Positions 6,698-27,522 of a stretch of 64,000 nt of DNA are shown piece after piece. The notes under the pieces are model-generated. The model was not told the DNA's origin and searched no databases. It saw only the letters and a program-made list of their open reading frames with translations. Position 1 is the first letter of the stretch; each line of letters starts with the position of its first letter. Both the position numbers and the translations under genes were made by a program. The DNA is from Terriglobia bacterium (GTDB lineage Bacteria > Acidobacteriota > Terriglobia > Acidiferrales > UBA7541). The stretch covers positions 677,741-741,740 of the forward strand of contig CAWFUN010000007.1 in assembly GCA_963819015.1 (NCBI GenBank). Reading direction: 5' to 3'.

Positions 6698-7062
6698 TCG
6701 TCCGATCCTGCGCCCGGAATTATTTGCGGGCTCGCGTGGGGCGGGTCCGCAAGTTCCTCTCACCAAACCCATCGTCCCCGGGAATCGCCGAAGTGTGTTT
6801 CTGGAGTTCGATTCCTTCGATTTGCGATAATCGTTCGCGCCGTTTCCCCGGAGGCGCGCGGAGCGACGCACCGGATCGCTCGTGAAAATCCTGCAAAACC
6901 GCACGCAGTAATCCGCTGGAATCCGCGAAAAGAATTTAACCGGGGTTCTGAAGTCGAATCCCCCGCGTTCTCAACCATGCAACTCAGTCATTCCGACCGG
7001 AGGGACGGCGCTCTTTGCCGTCCCGGAGCGGAGGAATCTCGCTTCAACTTCGAGATTCAGTT

Positions 7063-7896
7063 TCAGCGCCGCAGCGTCGCCTCGATGAGGGCGTACGGCT
7101 CTTCGGTGGGCAGGAAAATTTCGTTGTCGTTGCGCAAGCCGAACGGGTCGAGATTCACAAGGATATGTTGTTTGTTCGGAAGAGAGAAATGGATTTCAGC
7201 AACGTCGTCGTAGGCGGCGAGAACAGCTTCACCCATGGCGTCGAGCGTGTGCTGCGCGGAGCGGCTGTCATGTTCGGCGAAGGTTTCCAGAATGACGCGG
7301 CGAACGCCCTGCGCGAGCGTGCCGTAGGAGAGCCCCGGGCGGCTGTAGAGCCAGTCCGATTGGATGGCCGTGGCGAAAATGCGGTCGCTCGTTTCCTGGA
7401 GAGTCGTGAAGAGATCGTTGCGGAACCCCTCGAAGCCGGAATGGCTGCTCTTGAGAACGACGAGTCCCTCGACGCCGGCGCGAATCACAATGGATTCGCG
7501 CGTTCCGGCCACCGTCGCGGTGCGGCTTTCGCTTCCGCCGCGCAGAAACGCCGAGCCGTGCGGCTTGCCGCCGACGGGAATGCGGCTCCACGGATGTTCC
7601 GAGAGTTCGACGCGAACGCCGGAAACGGCGGGATTGATGCGCAGAAAATGCGAAGCCAGGCGCGCGCCGAATTCCTCGATCTCACCCGTGCCGCCGCGGG
7701 CCAGCGCGTAGACCGTGTTCTTCATCGTGTCGGTCGGGGTGATCTGACTGTTATCACCGTCGCGGTAGGCGGATTCAAACGCGCCTTCGAGGCGAATGCG
7801 AATCGTGAGATCTTTGATTTCGTGGGTGTCGCCGCGGCGTTCGAGCCGCAGCATGCGGACGCGCGCTTTGCCGTAGCCGTTCCAAACGAGCGCCAT
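7063..7896 (-). CDS. urate oxidase (cofactor-independent uricase)
   Basis: 277 aa; N-terminal YGKARVRMLRLERRG and the VVLKSSHSGFEGF motif characteristic of uricase T-fold proteins. Lies in a purine-catabolism context. Confidence 0.85.
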   Translation of the reverse strand: MALVWNGYGKARVRMLRLERRGDTHEIKDLTIRIRLEGAFESAYRDGDNSQITPTDTMKNTVYALARGGTGEIEEFGARLASHFLRINPAVSGVRVELSEHPWSRIPVGGKPHGSAFLRGGSESRTATVAGTRESIVIRAGVEGLVVLKSSHSGFEGFRNDLFTTLQETSDRIFATAIQSDWLYSRPGLSYGTLAQGVRRVILETFAEHDSRSAQHTLDAMGEAVLAAYDDVAEIHFSLPNKQHILVNLDPFGLRNDNEIFLPTEEPYALIEATLRR

Positions 7897-7905
7897 TGAG
7901 GATCC

Positions 7906-8247
7906 TCAACTTCCGCGATAGGTCGTATAGCCGAACGGGCTGAGCAACAGCGCAATGTGGTGGTGCTCGGACGGATTCTGGACCTCAAAGACGATGGAGA
8001 CCTCGGGATAGAAACACGCGACGCCTTGCGTACGAAAGTACGTACCGGTTCCAAAAGAGAGCCGGAACGTTCCAGGCGCGATTGTCGCGCTCGGAGGCAA
8101 GAGATCGGGGGTGCGGCCGTCGGCGCCGGTCTCCGCGCTATTCACGCGCTGCCAGCCGCCACCCTGTCGGCGCTCCAAAGTGACCGAGAGACTCGCGGCA
8201 GGCACGCCGCGCGAGGTATCGAGAACATGCGTCGTGATTCCGCTCAT
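7906..8247 (-). CDS. uraH: 5-hydroxyisourate hydrolase (transthyretin-like)
   Basis: Start MSGITTHVLDTSRGVPA with GGAGG 4 nt upstream, and the C-terminal YRGS signature of HIUases. The ATG overlaps the TGA of the upstream remnant (ATGA). Confidence 0.85.
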   Translation of the reverse strand: MSGITTHVLDTSRGVPAASLSVTLERRQGGGWQRVNSAETGADGRTPDLLPPSATIAPGTFRLSFGTGTYFRTQGVACFYPEVSIVFEVQNPSEHHHIALLLSPFGYTTYRGS

Positions 8248-8438
8248 TTCGCCTCCGACAGCAACCTTTCCAAACGGCACCGAGTGATGCGGCGCTGCTG
8301 TTCCGCCGCCTCCTGAATCTCCCGCTCGGGATCATTCTGGATGCGCTGCTCGAGAATCGCAAGCATCTCCTCGCTGGATTTTACGGTCGCGTCCGCCCAG
8401 GCGTTCCGAAGCCAGCGCCGGATATTCGGTGAGTTCCA
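8244..8438 (-). pseudogene. uraD: 3' remnant (64 codons) of OHCU decarboxylase, in frame directly after the allantoinase TGA
   Basis: Translation ...ATVKSSEEMLAILEQRIQNDPEREIQEAAEQQRRITRCRLERLLSEAK* matches the conserved C-terminus of OHCU decarboxylases (..ML.LL..RL.N.PE.E...A..E..KI..LRL..L). There is no start codon and no N-terminal domain. Its stop overlaps the uraH start (ATGA). Confidence 0.45.
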
Positions 8439-9800
8439 TCAGTCTGCGTTCCGTTCGAGCAACGATCCGCGCGGGTCTCCGGCAATGCGGCCGCGCTCGA
8501 AGATGAGCTTTCCTTTCAGGAAGGCTGCTTGCACCACGCCGGCGAGCGGCTTTCCATCATAAGGCGTCAGTTTGTTCTTCTGGTGCAGGCCGGACTGCTT
8601 CACGTGAAACACTTGGCTTGGATCCCAGATGACAAGATCCGCATCCGCGCCGGTTTCAAGCGTCCCCTTGCGGCCCGCGAGGCCCGCCATCCGAGCAGGC
8701 GCCTCCGCGAGCCAGCGAGCAACGGCTTCCACGCCGAACCCGCGCGTTCGCGCAGCCGTCCAAACCGCGGGCAATCGCAATTCAAGCGAAGCGATGCCGC
8801 CCCGGGCTTTGAAGAAATCGCCGTCCGCGCCGGTCTTGAGCTGCGCGGGACACGGACAATGATCGGAGACGATGAAATCAATCACGCCTTTGTGAAGCGC
8901 CCGCCAGAGCACATCGCGATTGGCGGAATCGCGAATGGGCGGGGCGCATTTGAATTGGACCGCGCCCGCGGGCACGCCGCCGCTGCGGAAATAAAGATAG
9001 TGCGGGCACGTTTCGACGCTGATGCGCACACCTTCCCGACGCGCGCGGCGAAGAATCGGCAGCGCCAGCGCGGCGGAGAGGTGCACGATGTGGATGGGCG
9101 CGCGAAATTCCCGGCCGAGCCCCACGAGCAAAGCGATGGCGTCGCGTTCGGCCTGCGGCGGCCGGGAACGCAGCCAGGTGCGATACCGGCGCGGATCCTC
9201 GCCGTGCAAGCGCCGCATGGCGGCGCCGATTGGCCGGGGCGCCTCGGCGTGCGCAAGCAGCGAAACGCCGAGCGAAGCGAGAATTGGCAACGCTTCGCGC
9301 AAATCGCTCTCGGAAACGTGCCCAAATTCCGGAACGCCGGACGGAACGAGAAAACATTTGAAGCCGAAGATGCCGGCATCGCGCAGCGGGCGCAGATCGT
9401 TTGCATTCCCCGGCACGACGCCGCCCCAGAAGCCGACGTCCACCCAGCACTGTCCGCGCGCGGCGCGCCGCTTGGCTTCGAGTGCGGCCACGGTCGTTGT
9501 CGCGGGAATGCTGTAGAGCGGCATATCGATCAGCGTGGTCGTGCCGCCGGCAGCGGCCGCGCGCGTGGCGGACTGGAAACCTTCCCAATCGGTGCGGCCG
9601 GGCTCGTTGATGTGGACGTGCGTATCCACGAGGCCGGCCATGACGACCGCGCGGCCGGCATCGTGTAACGGGCAGCCCGGGGGAATCGACTCCCAATTCT
9701 CGACGGCGGCGATTTTTCCGCCACGGATGTGGATACTCGCGCGGCGGACGCCGCTTGGCGTGACGACTCGCTCGCTGCGTACCACCAATTCGGCGCTCAT
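8439..9800 (-). CDS. allB: allantoinase (cyclic amidohydrolase superfamily)
   Basis: 453 aa; DTHVHINEPGRTDWEGF metal-binding motif, GGTTT, and length equal to AllB. Adjacent to uricase and HIUase. Confidence 0.8.
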   Translation of the reverse strand: MSAELVVRSERVVTPSGVRRASIHIRGGKIAAVENWESIPPGCPLHDAGRAVVMAGLVDTHVHINEPGRTDWEGFQSATRAAAAGGTTTLIDMPLYSIPATTTVAALEAKRRAARGQCWVDVGFWGGVVPGNANDLRPLRDAGIFGFKCFLVPSGVPEFGHVSESDLREALPILASLGVSLLAHAEAPRPIGAAMRRLHGEDPRRYRTWLRSRPPQAERDAIALLVGLGREFRAPIHIVHLSAALALPILRRARREGVRISVETCPHYLYFRSGGVPAGAVQFKCAPPIRDSANRDVLWRALHKGVIDFIVSDHCPCPAQLKTGADGDFFKARGGIASLELRLPAVWTAARTRGFGVEAVARWLAEAPARMAGLAGRKGTLETGADADLVIWDPSQVFHVKQSGLHQKNKLTPYDGKPLAGVVQAAFLKGKLIFERGRIAGDPRGSLLERNAD

Positions 9801-9953
9801 GAGGCGAGAGACTGCAGAGATTCTTCGCGGATGCTCTGCGCAACGCGCAGGCGGTAGCGCGCGCGGCCCGTCACATTGTCGCGGCCTTCTTTCCGCCGCA
9901 CCGAGTGACCCAGCAATTTGTGTTCGGCGGAGGCCATGACGCTCGCGGGCTGC

Positions 9954-10421
9954 TCAATACTTGACGCGGCCGGGAGATTCTAGCCACGCGCGAAACGCCG
10001 CCTGCGCTTCATCGCGCATCATCGGCTCCATTTCTATCTTCCGCTCGGCGGGGAGTGCGCGCAACTCATCGTAGATGAAAGTATCGTCGAAGCCGGCGGC
10101 GGCCGCATCCTCGGCGGTGCAGGCGTAGTAGACGTGGTCCGGCCGGGCCCAGTAAATCGCGCCGAAACACATGGGACACGGGTAGCAGCTCGTATAGATT
10201 TCGCAGCCATCGAGATGAAACGCGCCGAGAGCGCGGCAGGCTTCGCGGATGGCGATGATCTCGGCGTGGGCCGTGGGATCGTTGGACGAAGTCACGCGAT
10301 TCGTGCCTTCGGCGATGATTCGGCCGTCTTTCACGACGACGGCTCCGAACGGCCCGCCGCGGCCGGAACGCGCGCTCTCGATCGCCAATTCAATGGCGCG
10401 CTGCATGAAGGGGCTGGTCAT
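9954..10421 (-). CDS. guaD: guanine deaminase (CDA-fold, GuaD type)
   Basis: 155 aa; near-collinear with B. subtilis GuaD (GGPFGAVVVKDG.IIAEG.N.VTSSNDPTAHAEI.AIR.AC..LGA..LD.C.IYTSC.PCPMC.GAIYWARP...YYA....DAA.AGFDD.FIY.E). Confidence 0.75.
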   Translation of the reverse strand: MTSPFMQRAIELAIESARSGRGGPFGAVVVKDGRIIAEGTNRVTSSNDPTAHAEIIAIREACRALGAFHLDGCEIYTSCYPCPMCFGAIYWARPDHVYYACTAEDAAAAGFDDTFIYDELRALPAERKIEMEPMMRDEAQAAFRAWLESPGRVKY

Positions 10422-10478
10422 GGTGTCGCCAGATTGCGCATGCAGAATTCTAACAGTTTACGCAAAAAACGGGGTTAG

Positions 10479-10583
10479 GGTGTCATTCCGAACCCGCTTG
10501 CAGCGGGTGAGGAATCTCTCTTCGTTCAAATCCCAAGAAAAGAGAGATTCCTCGGCACGGAGCGTGCTTCGGAATGACAACAG
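10479..10583. repeat. ~105-nt cloverleaf-like palindromic element; candidate structured sRNA, REP/MITE or complex terminator
   Basis: Outer inverted repeat gtcattccgaa/ttcggaatgac, a 14-bp inner inverted repeat gaggaatctctctt/aagagagattcctc, and two small internal hairpins (cccgcTTGCAgcggg; gcacgGAGcgtgc). A TTTGATTTTTTC tract follows on the plus strand. Confidence 0.4.
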
Positions 10584-10821
10584 TTTGATTTTTTCGGTGC
10601 CCTACTGGCGAAAACTGCGGCTTTTCAGCGCACTTTCTGCGTGTTTCGCGCGAAGCCGGTACGTCCAGACCGCCGAATGGAATCTTTGGCGTCGGAAGGT
10701 GCCCCAAACGTAGGGCAGTTCCCCAGCTAGGACTTAGTGGAGTGGTATAATTACACTGAGAATATCCGTTGAAAGAGAAAACGCAAGAAGGGTCCGCCAC
10801 AACGGAAATGAGTTAAGGCGC

Positions 10822-11172
10822 GTGAAAACACCCGATAAGGTATTGGTCTCCTCCGGCGCGATTGTCGCTCTCACAACGGCAACGTTTCCTTACGTTAGAG
10901 GCTACGGGACAAACCTATTTCAGATCGTAGTTCTTAACGCTTGGGGTATCGTTGCCCATTTTTCCTCCGGTAGTTTCGCCGACCTTCATCACAGCGTAGT
11001 CTGGCCAGTTGCGCTAGTCCTGAACATGGCTGCATTCTCTGTGGTTGCCCTCCCCTGCTGGGCAGTTCTCCGAAATCGCGCACCTAAGATTGCCGCGGTA
11101 GCGACCATATGCTGGTTATGCCTATACGTCGCCATGCTATTCTTCTTATTCCCCGCAACCGATGGCCCTTGA
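10822..11172 (+). CDS. hypothetical small membrane protein
   Basis: ORF with a GTG start; 3 predicted TM segments; lower-GC codon usage; no recognisable domain. Confidence 0.35.
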   Translation: MKTPDKVLVSSGAIVALTTATFPYVRGYGTNLFQIVVLNAWGIVAHFSSGSFADLHHSVVWPVALVLNMAAFSVVALPCWAVLRNRAPKIAAVATICWLCLYVAMLFFLFPATDGP

Positions 11173-11408
11173 CTTGGGATTTCCAGGTGTAATCTCTCTT
11201 TCGCGGTCGAATTCCCAGTACCGGAATGTCAAGGAAACAGCACAGTAGCATCGGCCTGCGCGACTCCAGCCTCGGGGGGCGACACAAACCGGATCACCAT
11301 CACCGAGCGGGAACGCAGCTGAACATCCCGCAAATTGGGATATGCTATGCCGCGATTAGAGAGGCGAACCGCTTGTCGCTCTCCACACACCTAGATTAGG
11401 GGAAAAGC

Positions 11409-12440
11409 ATGGAGCTGAATACGAGGCCGTTCGGGAAGACCGGCATGCAGATCACGACGGTGGGATTCGGGGCGTGGGCGGCAGGCGGCGGCGGTTGGGC
11501 GTTCGGCTGGGGGCCGCAAGATGACGCCGAGTCGGTTGCGTCGATCCGGCGCGCAGTCGAGTTGGGCTTGAATTGGATCGACACCGCAGCGGTCTATGGG
11601 CTGGGCCACTCCGAGGAGGTCGTCGGGCGCGCCCTCCGTGAGATTCCGCCGGGCGACCGGCCGTTCGTCTTCACGAAGTGCGGACTGATTTTCGATCGCA
11701 ACAAACCGTTCGAGCCGGCGCAGCGCGTGCTGAAGCCGGAATCGCTGCGCAAAGAGGTGGAGATTTCTCTGCAGCGGCTCGGAGTCGAACGGATCGACCT
11801 CTATCAATTTCACTGGCCGGATGAAAGCGGCGTGCCGGTGGAGGATTCTTGGGGAGAGATGGCGCGGCTTGCTGAGGAAGGGAAAATTCGCGCGGCGGGC
11901 GTTTCCAATTTCGATGTTCCGCTGCTCGAGCGTTGCGAACGAATCCGGCACGTGGATTCGCTTCAACCGCCGTTTTCGCTGATCCGGCGGAAAGCCGCGG
12001 AAGACGTGATTCCGTGGTGCGCGGCTCACTCCACGGGCGTGATCGTCTATAGCCCTATGCAATCGGGAATACTGACGGATTCGTTCACGGCGGAGCGCGT
12101 CGCGAAACTCGCGGACGACGACTGGCGGAAGCGCGCGCCGTACTTTCAGCAGCCTGCATTGAACCAGGGCCTGCAACTGCGCGATGCGCTGCGTCCGATC
12201 GCAAAGCGGCACAACACGGCGGTCGCTTCCATTTCGGCGGCTTGGACGCTGGCTTGGCCCGGCGTGAGCGCAGCCATCGTGGGCGCGCGGTCGCCGTCGC
12301 AAGTGGACGGCTGGATTGGCGCGGGACGAATCGAGCTGACGCCTCAAGATCTCGACGAGATCGAGGTCGCGATCCAATCGAGCCAAGCGGGTTCGGGACC
12401 GAATCGGCCGCCGCGCGCGACCGCCAAGGTGAGCCGCTGA
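11409..12440 (+). CDS. aldo/keto reductase family oxidoreductase
   Basis: 343 aa; GFGAW..GG, IDTAAVYG, LQRLGVERIDLYQFHWPD and IVYSPMQSGILT motifs of the AKR superfamily. Confidence 0.9.
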   Translation: MELNTRPFGKTGMQITTVGFGAWAAGGGGWAFGWGPQDDAESVASIRRAVELGLNWIDTAAVYGLGHSEEVVGRALREIPPGDRPFVFTKCGLIFDRNKPFEPAQRVLKPESLRKEVEISLQRLGVERIDLYQFHWPDESGVPVEDSWGEMARLAEEGKIRAAGVSNFDVPLLERCERIRHVDSLQPPFSLIRRKAAEDVIPWCAAHSTGVIVYSPMQSGILTDSFTAERVAKLADDDWRKRAPYFQQPALNQGLQLRDALRPIAKRHNTAVASISAAWTLAWPGVSAAIVGARSPSQVDGWIGAGRIELTPQDLDEIEVAIQSSQAGSGPNRPPRATAKVSR

Positions 12441-23640: not shown

Positions 23641-25204
23641 TTACTTGCGAAGGGCGGCTTGGATTTCTTCAACCAGGGCCAGAATATGCCGCTCCTTAGC
23701 GCATAAGTCGTCTACGAGTTTCCCGGGTGGCATGTGCTCAAAGTCTTCTTTGGCATTCGGGTTCTTGATGTCGAGATTGGCGGATACAACCGCACCCTGT
23801 TCATCGTACTTCAGAACAGTCGAGACGGGCACTTTCCAGGCAAGCTCGTTCTCTTGGCGTTTGCCCCACCACTCTAGGCACGGCTCAAATTCCTCGAATC
23901 GCATGGTTTGTGTTTTCGTGTAATTTTTCCGGCCCTCGGGGAGGGGTTGCTCGTAATACCAAATCTCCTTGGTTGGTCCCGAGCGGTCAAAGAAGAGAAG
24001 ATTTGTCGGGATATTCGTATAGGGTGCGAAAACTCCGTTCGGCAATCGGACGATCGTATGGAGGTTGAATTCTTTGAGAAGCTCTTCCTTGATGCGCGCG
24101 CAAATACCGTCGCCGAACAGTACGCCGTTCGGCACAACCATGCCGCAGCGGCCCGGCTTTGCGCCTCCCACCGGGCGGCGAAGTTTGCGCATGATGAGCT
24201 GGAGGAATAGAAGGGCGGTCTCGGCGGTCTTCTTGTCCTCGGGGAAATTCGAGAGGATCCCGCGCTCTTCCTCGCCGCCAAAGGGCGGATTGGTCATGAT
24301 GATGTCCACGCGGTCCTTGTCCCCGATTTCGCGCAAGGGAAAGCGGAGGGCGTTTTCTGGATCAATGTCCGGCGATTCCAGGCCGTGGAGCAGGAGGTTC
24401 ATCTGGCATAGCAGGTAAGGAAGCGACTTCGGTTCGATTCCGAAAAGGGTGCCCTTCTGCAGCCGATTGAAGTCTTCCGTCTTCTTGCATTGCTCTTGCA
24501 GGTGCGTAAATGCTTCGACGAGAAAGCCGCCCGTGCCCGCCGCAGGGTCGAGGATGGTTTCGCCCAGGCGGGGATTCAAGACGGAGACGATGAATTTGAC
24601 AACGGGACGCGGCGTGTAGAATTCACCGGAATCGCCCGCCGAGTCTCGCATTTCGCGGAGCATGGACTCGTAGAGCAAGCCTAGCGTGTGGATTTCATCT
24701 TTGGACGTGAAGTGGATTTCATTGATTTTGTTGACCACATCGCGGAGGAGGTAGCCGTTGGTCATGCGGTTGAACGTGCCCTGGAAAACCTTGGCGATCA
24801 CGTCGCGGCGGTCACCGTTTGCGCTGCGCAGCGAACGCAGATAAGCAAAGAGGCCCGTCGCCACGCTTGCCGTCCGGGCGGATGGCTTCGTCCTGATTGA
24901 TGAAGGCGATTAGCTCTGGGCCGGTGATGCCCATCGGGTTCGCAGCCCAATCGCGCCAGCGGTAGGGCGGTTCGATGGCGGGGCGGAAGCGCTTGCCGGC
25001 GAGTTTGGCTTCTTCGGCGCGGATGCTCTCCATGTCATCAAGGAACTTGAGGAACATGATCCAGGTGAGCATCGGCAGGCGGTCAAGGTCGCCGTTGAGG
25101 CCTTTGTCCTTGCGCATGATGTCGCGGCAGGATTTGACAATGGAAGCGAGCTGCTGGGCGGTGGATTGCGGGAGTTCCTTGTTGCTGTTTTTTGTTCGGG
25201 CCAT
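23641..25204 (-). pseudogene. hsdM: Type I R-M methyltransferase subunit HsdM, interrupted by a +1 frameshift in a GGG run (~24854-24856)
   Basis: N-terminal HsdM_N domain in ORF 24812..25204 (...FINQDEAIRPDGKRGDGP then nonsense). The catalytic part is in ORF 23641..24864 (GLFAYLRSL...NPPFG...), offset by one nucleotide. Removing one G from gacGGGcct restores ...KRGDGLFAYLRSL. Confidence 0.75.
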
Positions 25205-27522
25205 AGGTGTCTAGTTAGGGCTGCGTAGAGGAGCGTCTGCAATTCGTCCACGGCCGCGCGCAGCATTTCCGCGCCGCCGAACATTTGCGAAATCTCCATC
25301 ACGCTGCCTCGATCTGAAATCGGCGGCACTTTCAGAATCTCCGGGATGGCGAATTGCGCCGTGCCATAGTCTACATACTTATCGAGAATATCGTGCAAGA
25401 CTTCGCGGGCTTTTTCGGAATACCGCTCGAAGAAGGCCTTCTGTTCTTTCCGAAGCCGTTCGGCGCGCTCTCGGCGCGTGCGAATCGGGGCGCTGTAAGC
25501 GACCTGGCAGAGAAGATCGAACGGGTCCGCGTCCGGTTGGTTTGATGCAGCGATGAGTTCTTCGAGCGCAATGCCGCGCTCTTCCAGGGCCTGAATGATT
25601 TCAGCGCGTTGGTCGGCGTCAGACCATTTTGAGCGGAGATCCGCCGCGGAGGGGCACATACTCGCGCACTTTCTCGCCCGTGTAGTCCGTGAAGCGGACG
25701 ACGCGAAGCTGCTTGCCTTCGGCATCCAGTTCGGAAACGAAGTGGGCCACGATTTCGATGGAACCCTGGTCCACGTAAAATTTGCGGGGCGCTTGTTCCT
25801 TCTTGCCTCCGGGTTCGAGGATTTGCGGCGGCAAGGGATCGGCGATGACTTCCTCGGGCTTTTCGATGTCGGCTTTGACGTTCTCGCCTGCGGCGTTCAT
25901 TTCCTCGACGGTCACCAAAGCGGGTTCGCCATCGAAATCGGGATCGGAGAAAAGGCGCGTGGCGCTTCCGGTGTAATCGAGGATGTTGAAAAAGAGCTTG
26001 CCGTAGTCGTCCTTGACGCGGGTGCCGCGTCCGATGATCTGCTTGAATTCGGTCATCGAGTTGATGATGCGAGCGATGACGATGTTCTTGCAGGTTTGAA
26101 CATCCACGCCGGTGGTCAGAAGTTGAGAAGTAGTGACAATCGTTGGGGTTGCAGTCTCAAGCTCCATGAAGCGGTCTAAGTGGCCGCGTCCCGTTTTGCC
26201 TTCATCCGCGGTGATGCGGACAACGTAATCCGGGTATTGCTGGACCAAATCCGCGTTGAGATTGTTGAGAGCGTGGCGCATGTCTTCGGCGTGTTCCTGG
26301 TCAACGCAAAAGACGATGGTTTTGTCGAATCTCCCATTCGCTTTCAGAAAATCGGTGAGATTGCGGGCGATGGTTTCGGTGCGAGGGAGGAGAGAGACTT
26401 TGCGCTCAAAATCCTTGGTGGTGTATTCGGCGTCCGGGATTTCGCGCCCTAAGCGGTCAAGCTGGCCACGATTCGGCCGCCAGCCAACGGAATCGGCGCT
26501 GGTGACGATGCGATGGACGCGATAGGGCGCCAGGAAACCGTCTTCGATGCCCTGCCGCAAGCTGTAGGTGTAGAGCGGATTGCCGAAGTAGAGATACGTG
26601 TCGCGGTTGTCTTCGCGCTTCGGGGTGGCGGTCATGCCGAGCTGGAAGGCAGGCTCGAAATACTTCAGGATATCTTTCCAGTTGGAATCGTCGGCTGCGC
26701 TGCCGCGGTGGCACTCGTCCACGACGATGAGGTCAAAGAAATCCCTCGGGTAGTCACGGTAAAGGCCGGGGCGGCGTTCGTCTTTGGCGATCGCCTGATA
26801 GGTCGCGAAATACATCTCGCGGCTCTTGATGGCCTCGCCCTCGATCTTGTGCCGGGCGTCGCCAAAGGGGGTAAAGATTTTGTCCTTGGGGTCGTCCACG
26901 AGGATGTTGCGGTCGGCAAGATAGAGAATGCGAGGACGGCGTGCTGGATCACCAGTCCGATTCCATTTGGTGTTCCAGAGTTTGTAGCAAATCTGGAAGG
27001 CGACGACGGTCTTGCCGGTGCCCGTGGCAAGGGTGAGAAGAACGCGCTTCTGGCCCTGAAGAATGGCGCGGATGGCGCTGTTGATGGCGATCTCTTGGTA
27101 GTAGCGCGGCGATTTTCCGGAGAGATGGTAGTACGGGGTGAGAAGGCGTTCGACGATCTGGCTGGGGATGTTTTCGCCGTGCTTGAGGCGCTGCCAGAGT
27201 TCGTCGGGAGACGGGAAGCTTTCGAGAGTGCTGTTCGAGGCCGGTCAGTGAAATCGTGCTCGACGATGCCGTGGCCGTTGGTGGAGTAGGCAAACTTCAG
27301 ACCAAGGATTTGTGCGTACTCCATCGCCTGGCCGAGACCATCGGCGGGTTTCTTGTAGTCGGCCTTGGCTTCAACGATGGCGATTGCAAAGTCAGGGCGG
27401 TAGCGGAGGAGATAGTCGGCGCGCTTCTGTTTGCGGCGGATCGTGCGGTTGCCAGCGACGACGATCCGGCCATCGGTGAAAGTCCGCTGCTCGTTGATGT
27501 GGTCGTCCGTCCCAGCCTGCAC
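25204..27522 (-). pseudogene. hsdR: Type I restriction enzyme R subunit HsdR (EcoEI-like C-terminal domain family), with at least two frameshifts (~27240-27250 and ~25650-25655)
   Basis: Three consecutive frames carry collinear HsdR sequence: the N-terminal nuclease domain (ORF 26665..27522, real up to NGHGIVEHDFT); the helicase core (frame of 25619..26899, which extends upstream to STLESFPSPDELWQRL...YYQEIAINSAIRAILQGQKRVLLTLATGTGKT, VVDECHR, QLLTTGVDV, QIIGRGTR); and the C-terminal domain (ORF 24910..25725 from SAADLRSKWSDADQRAEIIQALEERG... to ELQTLLYA). That frame then reads through the hsdM start with no stop. Confidence 0.75.

Follow-up and report, generated by a model that had tools for sequence, protein, structure and literature searches.

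On the minus strand of a 64,000-nucleotide stretch of a Terriglobia contig (Acidobacteriota, Acidiferrales, UBA7541; CAWFUN010000007.1, forward-strand positions 677,741 to 741,740; hereafter the window), a purine-catabolism cluster carries a short open stretch (8244..8441) between its allantoinase gene allB and its 5-hydroxyisourate (HIU) hydrolase gene uraH. This stretch contains the end of uraD, the gene for OHCU decarboxylase (OHCU: 2-oxo-4-hydroxy-4-carboxy-5-ureidoimidazoline). We are confident that it is a non-coding relic of a deletion that took most of uraD together with most of the allantoicase gene alc; the stub seems to have been kept for signals that would serve the expression of uraH and the adjoining urate oxidase gene uox.

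Translation leaves 64 codons open between the allantoinase TGA and a terminal TGA, and the resulting peptide is identical to that given in an initial annotation of this DNA, made from the sequence alone, which had read past the allantoinase stop and recognised the C-terminal part of an OHCU decarboxylase. A profile search, proposed there as a check, bears out the similarity, with residues 19–57 aligning to positions 117–155 of the 155-position PF09349 (OHCU_decarbox) profile (Pfam hmmscan, E = 6.7e-8, 33.6 bits, gathering cut-off 24 bits). Our own uraD hidden Markov model (HMM), based on 131 uraD genes from related loci and run with filters off against a six-frame translation of the whole 64 kb, found the relic as its sole match (HMM positions 123–170 of 178, E = 5e-19). 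In addition, tblastn placed residues 121–167 of the UraD of L001, a Terriglobia metagenome-assembled genome and the closest relative with an intact cluster, on 8393..8253 at 83% identity. Pfam, HMM and tblastn together delimit a uraD 3′-end relic at 8244..8393 on the minus strand (residues ~121–169 and the stop, 8246..8244), with homology to OHCU decarboxylase confined to the last ~47 codons of the open stretch. The stop overlaps the uraH ATG (8247..8245) as ATGA, a junction that the initial annotation had pointed out and that is ancestral, being identical in the intact L001. UraD residues 1–120 had no match in any frame of the 64 kb, overlapping frames included, and no uraD paralogue was found elsewhere in it (tblastn, E up to 10; own HMM); for the window, the annotation was thus right that the N-terminus, where it placed the catalytic His region, is gone (~120 residues) and that the cluster lacks an OHCU decarboxylase. 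The catalytic His and Glu of this enzyme lie in the N-terminal and central part of the domain. Where the L001 UraD covers profile positions 1–155, the relic has lost ~116 of the 155, and it is a gene fragment rather than a member enzyme: it shares the C-terminal helices and the stop/uraH overlap of intact operons, but is without the ~120 N-terminal residues (about three quarters of the domain), an in-frame start and coding-type selection.

Upstream of the uraD piece, the relic consists of the 5′ end of alc. The A of the allantoinase TGA doubles as the A of an ATG (TGATG, with the alc ATG at 8439..8437), and in L001 the same overlap opens a 335-residue allantoicase with two PF03561 repeats. Residues 1–17 of L001 Alc match 8439..8389 at 88% identity (tblastn, E = 7e-4), giving an alc 5′-end relic on the minus strand (8389..8439; ATG and codons 1–17, MELTEYPALASERLGGR) whose ATG overlaps the allB stop. 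From its start, the alc frame runs on as a leftover open reading frame of 35 codons (8332..8439, minus strand; MELTEYPALASERLGGRDRKIQRGDACDSRAAHPE, then a stop) that has no Pfam match and does not share the frame of the uraD relic. Compared with a complete allantoicase, the relic therefore shares the ATG and the next 16 codons, but is without both repeats (~330 residues, of which residues 1–17 alone are left in the window), and its frame enters uraD out of frame and ends after 35 codons. Beyond Alc 1–17 and UraD 121–167, tblastn found no further part of either L001 protein in the 64 kb.

The two pieces meet at 8388..8394 (minus strand) in a 7-nucleotide (nt) microhomology, GGACGCG, common to alc codons 16–18 and uraD codons ~119–121, and the alc and uraD tblastn matches overlap by 5 nt inside it (8389..8393). 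Two less eroded relatives, L081 and L085, retain both GGACGCG copies (GGCGGACGCGTCC and GTGGACGCGACC), and the window retains one. Both outer ends of the missing block are present and collinear between allB and uraH, alc 1–17 being followed by uraD 121–169 in the order seen at L001 and many other loci. As read from the sequence, this is the product of an out-of-frame deletion of ~1.3 kb from alc codon 17 to uraD codon ~121, by which alc and uraD were both lost.

A protein search with the 64-residue peptide returned four clusters only, all of them short (56–89 residues) and three of the four annotated as OHCU decarboxylase by the Joint Genome Institute. The contigs of these clusters, and two further contigs that a uraH scan of metagenomes turned up, provided variant loci, in which allB is 94–96% identical in nucleotides (synonymous divergence, dS, 0.11–0.16) with L001 as outgroup at dS ~0.75. 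The joint of the window recurs in L082 and L083, where the alc ATG is mutated to ATT. L081 has an in-frame fusion of 89 residues, alc 1–~19 with uraD ~97–169, and a further 9-codon gap, and in L085–L089 a 9-nt repeat (CTCGCCGCG) marks the junction of alc ~20 with uraD ~109, with a 1-nt frameshift in addition. L084 has lost allB too, an xdhMo fragment being joined to uraD at ~codon 90; L090 has this structure shortened further, with a 1-nt deletion near the uraD end that breaks the relic frame in DNA that is still similar. In the more distant L093 (uraH 75% identical), uraD begins at ~codon 129 and the DNA upstream of it is unrelated. Most of the variants can apparently be arranged as repeat-mediated deletions nested one within another, with L093 as an independent case. 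L090 looks like an L084-type locus that underwent one more deletion, between two GGGGCC.GC..GCG repeats; at these two loci (L084, 2971..3294; L090, 4721..4961), the deaminase, the uraD stub, uraH and uox are left. The L082/L083 and L085/L086 deletion variants co-occur in samples 3300035696 and 3300033402, in strains ~4% apart in allB. The deletion junction was rejected as a clade marker because of conflicting site patterns across allB, uraH and uox (26 sites uniting L082 with L085, 20 the window with L085 and 10 the window with L082), and the joint common to the window and L082 may reflect two separate deletions at one repeat, or transfer by recombination.

These comparisons bear on three other accounts of the relic. 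The initial annotation had proposed that one deletion fused the allantoinase 3′ end directly to the uraD 3′ end, with uraD alone lost, and such a fusion would agree with a relic that follows straight after the allB stop, in the allB frame and with no uraD N-terminus. However, the 51 nt after that stop are the alc 5′ end with its ancestral TGATG overlap, intact relatives have the 335-residue alc between allB and uraD, and L081 and L085 show alc/uraD joints explicitly; the left breakpoint lies inside alc and the joint is out of frame, leaving direct fusion barely credible. The uraD relic is in frame with allB because the alc start lies at +2 relative to allB and the joint shifts the frame by +1, a coincidence restricted to the window/L082 type and absent from the sister variant L085–L089, and therefore incidental, an arithmetic accident. 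The same annotation rightly took the allantoinase to be full length and the stub to be a relic of deletion, but told the loss incompletely, as alc, xdhABC and DUF6986 have also gone. The comparison of orthologous loci that it recommended does show an intact uraD between allB and uraH, in L001 and dozens more, but with alc there as well; likewise, its statement that no start codon is present holds for the uraD frame, but not for alc, whose start codon has survived. Even less plausible, and in our view practically negligible, is an assembly or binning artefact, in which a chimeric or collapsed contig would stand in for a true genome with intact alc and uraD. The window does probably derive from a metagenomic assembly, and a check of reads across the joint had been proposed, but the identical joint is present in L082 (sample 3300035696) and L083 (sample 3300033402), with the relic at 92% nucleotide identity, and four or five further junction variants occur in other samples. 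Two samples and different strains with one joint, alongside other, partly nested junctions, therefore speak against an artefact. Finally, the relic might still function, either as a micro-protein of 40–64 residues consisting of the UraD C-terminal helices (e.g. from an internal ATG at 8366) or as an extension of allantoinase by read-through of its TGA, and the 64 open codons, the 78–86% conservation of the last ~45 residues among relatives, the annotation as OHCU decarboxylase and the stop overlapping the uraH start could all be taken in its favour. Yet variable sites in the uraD frame of six relic sequences number 11/10/6 at codon positions 1/2/3, unlike those of every intact neighbour (uraH 13/10/35; uox 19/9/57; allB 25/11/70), and pairwise ratios of nonsynonymous to synonymous substitution (dN/dS) are 0.2–1.5, compared with 0.09–0.25 in the intact neighbours (one uraH pair at 0.44). 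The missing third-position excess, the L090 frameshift, the lost alc ATG of L082 and the L085 frameshift together argue against a micro-protein or read-through. Moreover, a read-through product would be in the uraD frame in the window/L082 type but not in L085, no spaced ribosome-binding site precedes the internal ATG, which GAGGAG abuts, and most of the domain is missing. With no in-frame start, no coding pattern of variation and a frameshifted relative, the relic is not a translatable gene under protein-level purifying selection; it no longer evolves as coding sequence, and a functional peptide is highly improbable.

Within the non-coding relic, a constrained block of 48 nt (8326..8373, minus strand; CGAGGAGATGCTTGCGATTCTCGAGCAGCGCATCCAGAATGATCCCGA) is put forward as a possible internal promoter, or other cis element, serving uraH-uox. 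Only 1 of its 48 sites varies among the window, L082 and L085 (p about 0.002–0.004, with block boundaries chosen post hoc), compared with 15–21% of sites in the other relic pieces of the cluster (the alc remnant, the 19 nt with which the uraD remnant opens, and the xdh relic); third codon positions of intact genes, at 16.5%, are similar to these non-block pieces. Constraint is also evident where uraD is intact. When L001 was compared with 11 diverged intact relatives across allB, alc, uraD, uraH and uox (~1,300 windows of codons), synonymous sites were otherwise saturated, and the 14-codon window of the block had the top synonymous codon identity (0.89, where the mean was 0.53 and the next-best window reached 0.79). 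The conserved bases spell TTGC(R)(M) and, after a variable 17-nt spacer, CA(N)AAT; in the window they give a −35-like TTGCGA (8357..8362) and a −10-like CAGAAT (8334..8339), the latter with its second-position A and sixth-position T, both hexamers lying on the minus strand. In a set of 16 uraD genes well diverged from one another, leucine is invariably encoded here by CTT, a rare codon with 13% usage in the remainder of the gene, and asparagine by AAT (36%); the features of the two hexamers occur together (Fisher test, 2e-8, with no correction for phylogeny). No variant retains less than the final ~125 nt of uraD, and in L093 uraD sequence starts only at the 5′ edge of the block. A Shine-Dalgarno-like GGAGG, read from the sequence (8252..8256, minus strand), stands 4 nt 5′ of the uraH ATG, and its GGAG is kept in all variants. 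The block has the layout of a weak sigma-70-type promoter ~85 nt 5′ of uraH; that it acts as a promoter for uraH-uox is roughly an even call. The wider proposition that the uraD 3′ end doubles as uraH-uox promoter and leader in this acidobacterial clade, with the stub kept purely as a regulatory element, is tentative, and we place it a little short of even. If true, the 3′ ~145 nt of uraD would have been kept in every rearranged relative since the expression signals of uraH-uox lie in it, what was once coding sequence would live on as a promoter, and the repeated, partly parallel repeat-mediated deletions that end before the block would be in effect a deletion scan performed by nature, delimiting the smallest cis-region of these genes.

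Other signals were considered in the same interval. A sigma-54 reading of the TTGC in the block was rejected by eye, with the GG spacing wrong and the upstream part not conserved in L093, and a dyad-symmetry operator was set aside, as only GATGC...GCATC pairs, weakly. Read on the opposite strand, the conserved region just upstream of the deaminase ATG (10436..10452, minus strand) contains GCGCATGCAGAAT, which matches GCGCATCCAGAAT of the block (8334..8346, minus strand) at 12 of 13 positions. This 13-nt match, GCGCAT[C/G]CAGAAT, is inverted and overlaps the −10 region of the deaminase; the same pair is found in L001 and is altered in L084, and a shared operator is possible.

Alternatively, the relic could be junk that has yet to erode, in which the block was spared by chance, mutational coldness or recombination and uraH-uox is transcribed solely from a promoter 5′ of the deaminase. 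The deleted clade is young, as its dS values show, and a conserved region upstream of the deaminase ATG contains a good −10, TAGAAT (10447..10452). There was no Rfam match in the relic at E up to 1 and no unusual RNA stability (fold z-score +0.85). Against this, relic pieces of the same age vary at 15–21% of sites, compared with 2% in the block, the codons of the block are the most synonymously constrained of all those scanned in intact relatives, and L093 retains the block and nothing of uraD upstream of it. On balance we consider uneroded junk unlikely, though a serious contender. The reading that we prefer, of a deletion relic retained for signals of uraH-uox, has several points weighing against it in turn. 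TTGCGA-17-CAGAAT fits the sigma-70 consensus at 8 of 12 positions, with C for T at the first −10 position, and a consensus promoter scan of 6900..10700 found no site at or above 9/12. The block was delimited with the alignment in view, the sequences compared are related and not numerous, and no phylogenetic correction enters the Fisher test. Despite their common joint, the window and L082 are not made sisters by the site patterns, and the deletions may have been serial or independent. The relatives were found through relic or uraH searches, and relics without the uraD C-terminus would be under-sampled as a result. Lastly, the evidence covers 64 kb, and the enzymatic steps may be encoded elsewhere in the genome.

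The ancestral arrangement is preserved in L001 and L099, where the order is deaminase-xdhMo-xdhFeS-xdhFAD-allB-alc-uraD-uraH-uox, and in L095 from xdhMo through uox, with the cluster cut off at the contig end. In L001, alc is followed by a uraD of 169 residues, then uraH and uox, and the core allB-alc-uraD-uraH occurs in dozens of the 80 species-level genomes retrieved. Two further deletions are recorded in the window. Between the deaminase gene and allB, where L001 holds all three xdh genes, a relic of the xanthine dehydrogenase genes xdhABC (9797..9937, minus strand) consists of 46 in-frame codons, codons 1–28 of the Mo-subunit gene xdhMo and the last ~18 codons of the FAD-subunit gene xdhFAD (tblastn: xdhMo 1–28 at 86% identity; xdhFAD 261–287). 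Its stop overlaps the allB start, its joint is a 10-nt repeat, CGCGCGCTAC (9854..9863), which L001 has at both sites, and it has been called as a 46-residue gene in L082, L083 and L085–L087. At the far end of the cluster, blastn and tblastn against L001 identified the last ~18 codons only (...AERRTGSLVKILQNRTQ and a stop; 6855..6911, plus strand) of a DUF6986 gene that in L001 encodes 480 residues (10208..11650) on the opposite strand, convergent to uox. L090 retains both ends of this gene (residues 1–25 and 449–477). Among the purine-catabolism loci retrieved, more than 50 have DUF6986 convergent to uox, and this tight linkage suggests that the gene serves a step in ureide or glyoxylate metabolism yet to be characterised. 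It has weak similarity to the malate-synthase TIM barrel, and a literature search for it gave no papers. At least three internal deletions have cut a ten-gene cluster to four intact genes.

The history that we propose would begin from the L001-like order, with DUF6986 convergent to uox at its end. Slippage or illegitimate recombination between the two GGACGCG copies would then have joined alc codon 17 to uraD codon ~121, perhaps as the final step of a nested deletion series. Left over from this event would be the alc start on the allB stop, 17 alc codons, the last ~49 codons of uraD and the ancestral ATGA onto uraH, and the relic would have been retained as the promoter, leader and ribosome-binding region (the GGAGG and the 48-nt block) of uraH-uox.

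Four genes of the cluster remain intact, all on the minus strand. The first encodes a guanine deaminase-like protein of the cytidine deaminase fold (9954..10421; Pfam dCMP_cyt_deam_1, E = 1e-27; 87% identical to L001). It is followed by allB (8439..9800; stop TGA 8441..8439), whose 453-residue product matches Pfam Amidohydro_1 over profile positions 1–344 of 345 (E = 3.9e-26) along with an allantoinase composite domain, and is 84% identical over residues 1–452 to the L001 allantoinase, likewise of 453 residues. Downstream of the relic are uraH (7906..8247; 113 residues; Pfam Transthyretin/HIUase, E = 2e-37 over the full profile) and uox (7063..7896; 277 residues; Pfam Uricase, E = 7e-55, two repeats; 89% identical to L001). 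Within the deleted clade, dN/dS is 0.17–0.22 for allB, 0.09–0.13 for uox and mostly 0.12–0.25 for uraH, the outlier being the L085–L084 pair. Three copies of a short palindromic repeat flank the cluster, one just 3′ of uox (~6987..7040) and two 5′ of the deaminase gene (~10482..10518 and ~10544..10578), with the layout GTCATTCC...stem-loop...GAGGAATCTC or its reverse complement; they resemble intergenic elements of the REP (repetitive extragenic palindromic) type. Further along the window, also on the minus strand, are genes for an N6 DNA methylase of 407 residues (23641..24864) and for a protein of 426 residues (25619..26899) that matches the end of the ResIII domain alone (profile positions 88–164); the latter may be a truncated type I/III restriction subunit, possibly another decayed gene.

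In its present form the cluster is predicted to encode the conversion of guanine to xanthine, of urate through HIU to OHCU, and of allantoin to allantoate. The steps from xanthine to urate and from OHCU to (S)-allantoin, as well as the cleavage of allantoate, are not encoded in the cluster, and no allantoate amidohydrolase or other ureide-metabolism gene was found among the 20 larger open reading frames of the window scanned against Pfam. With only deaminase, allantoinase, HIU hydrolase and uricase left, OHCU would decay to racemic allantoin and allantoate would go uncleaved, barring enzymes elsewhere in the genome. OHCU is known to decay non-enzymatically, and in other organisms slow growth on urate is still seen in OHCU-decarboxylase mutants (PMC3646786). 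Spontaneous decay of OHCU to racemic allantoin, as suggested in the initial annotation, is thus a reasonable expectation, and it would render the decarboxylase dispensable. The retained genes have been under purifying selection since the common xdh and DUF6986 deletions, which argues that the stump pathway is still used, and raises the question of what use a pathway from urate to allantoate is to the cell.

The locus records the stepwise erosion of a cluster from ten genes to four (three in some relatives) by short-repeat deletions that spare gene ends. One practical consequence is that stubs of 56–89 residues annotated as ‘2-oxo-4-hydroxy-4-carboxy-5-ureidoimidazoline decarboxylase’ would lead to the urate pathway being wrongly scored as complete in peat and soil Terriglobia. 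The 48-nt block offers a concrete and testable candidate for an internal promoter of uraH-uox, and with it the modest concept that gene relics can persist by carrying their neighbours’ signals, which overturns nothing in current knowledge.

The feature is itself a gene relic of a known kind, the outcome of ordinary operon decay by short-repeat deletion. Pseudogenes of urate oxidase and HIU hydrolase in hominoids represent decay of the uricolytic pathway by gene inactivation (PMC3646786), and the cluster described here likewise shows piecemeal loss of steps between urate and the ureides within a lineage. In contrast to hominoids, uricase and HIU hydrolase have been kept here under purifying selection, and it is xanthine dehydrogenase, OHCU decarboxylase, allantoicase and DUF6986 that were removed, by repeat-mediated deletions rather than point mutations. 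With intragenic promoters located in the 3′ end of an upstream operon gene, the block has in common two conserved hexamers 17 nt apart within coding sequence, ~85 nt 5′ of the following gene, as well as synonymous constraint in intact genes and retention after the loss of its host gene. It differs from them in its weak match to the sigma-70 consensus (8 of 12 positions), and it may instead be a cis element of another kind, such as an operator or an RNA signal.

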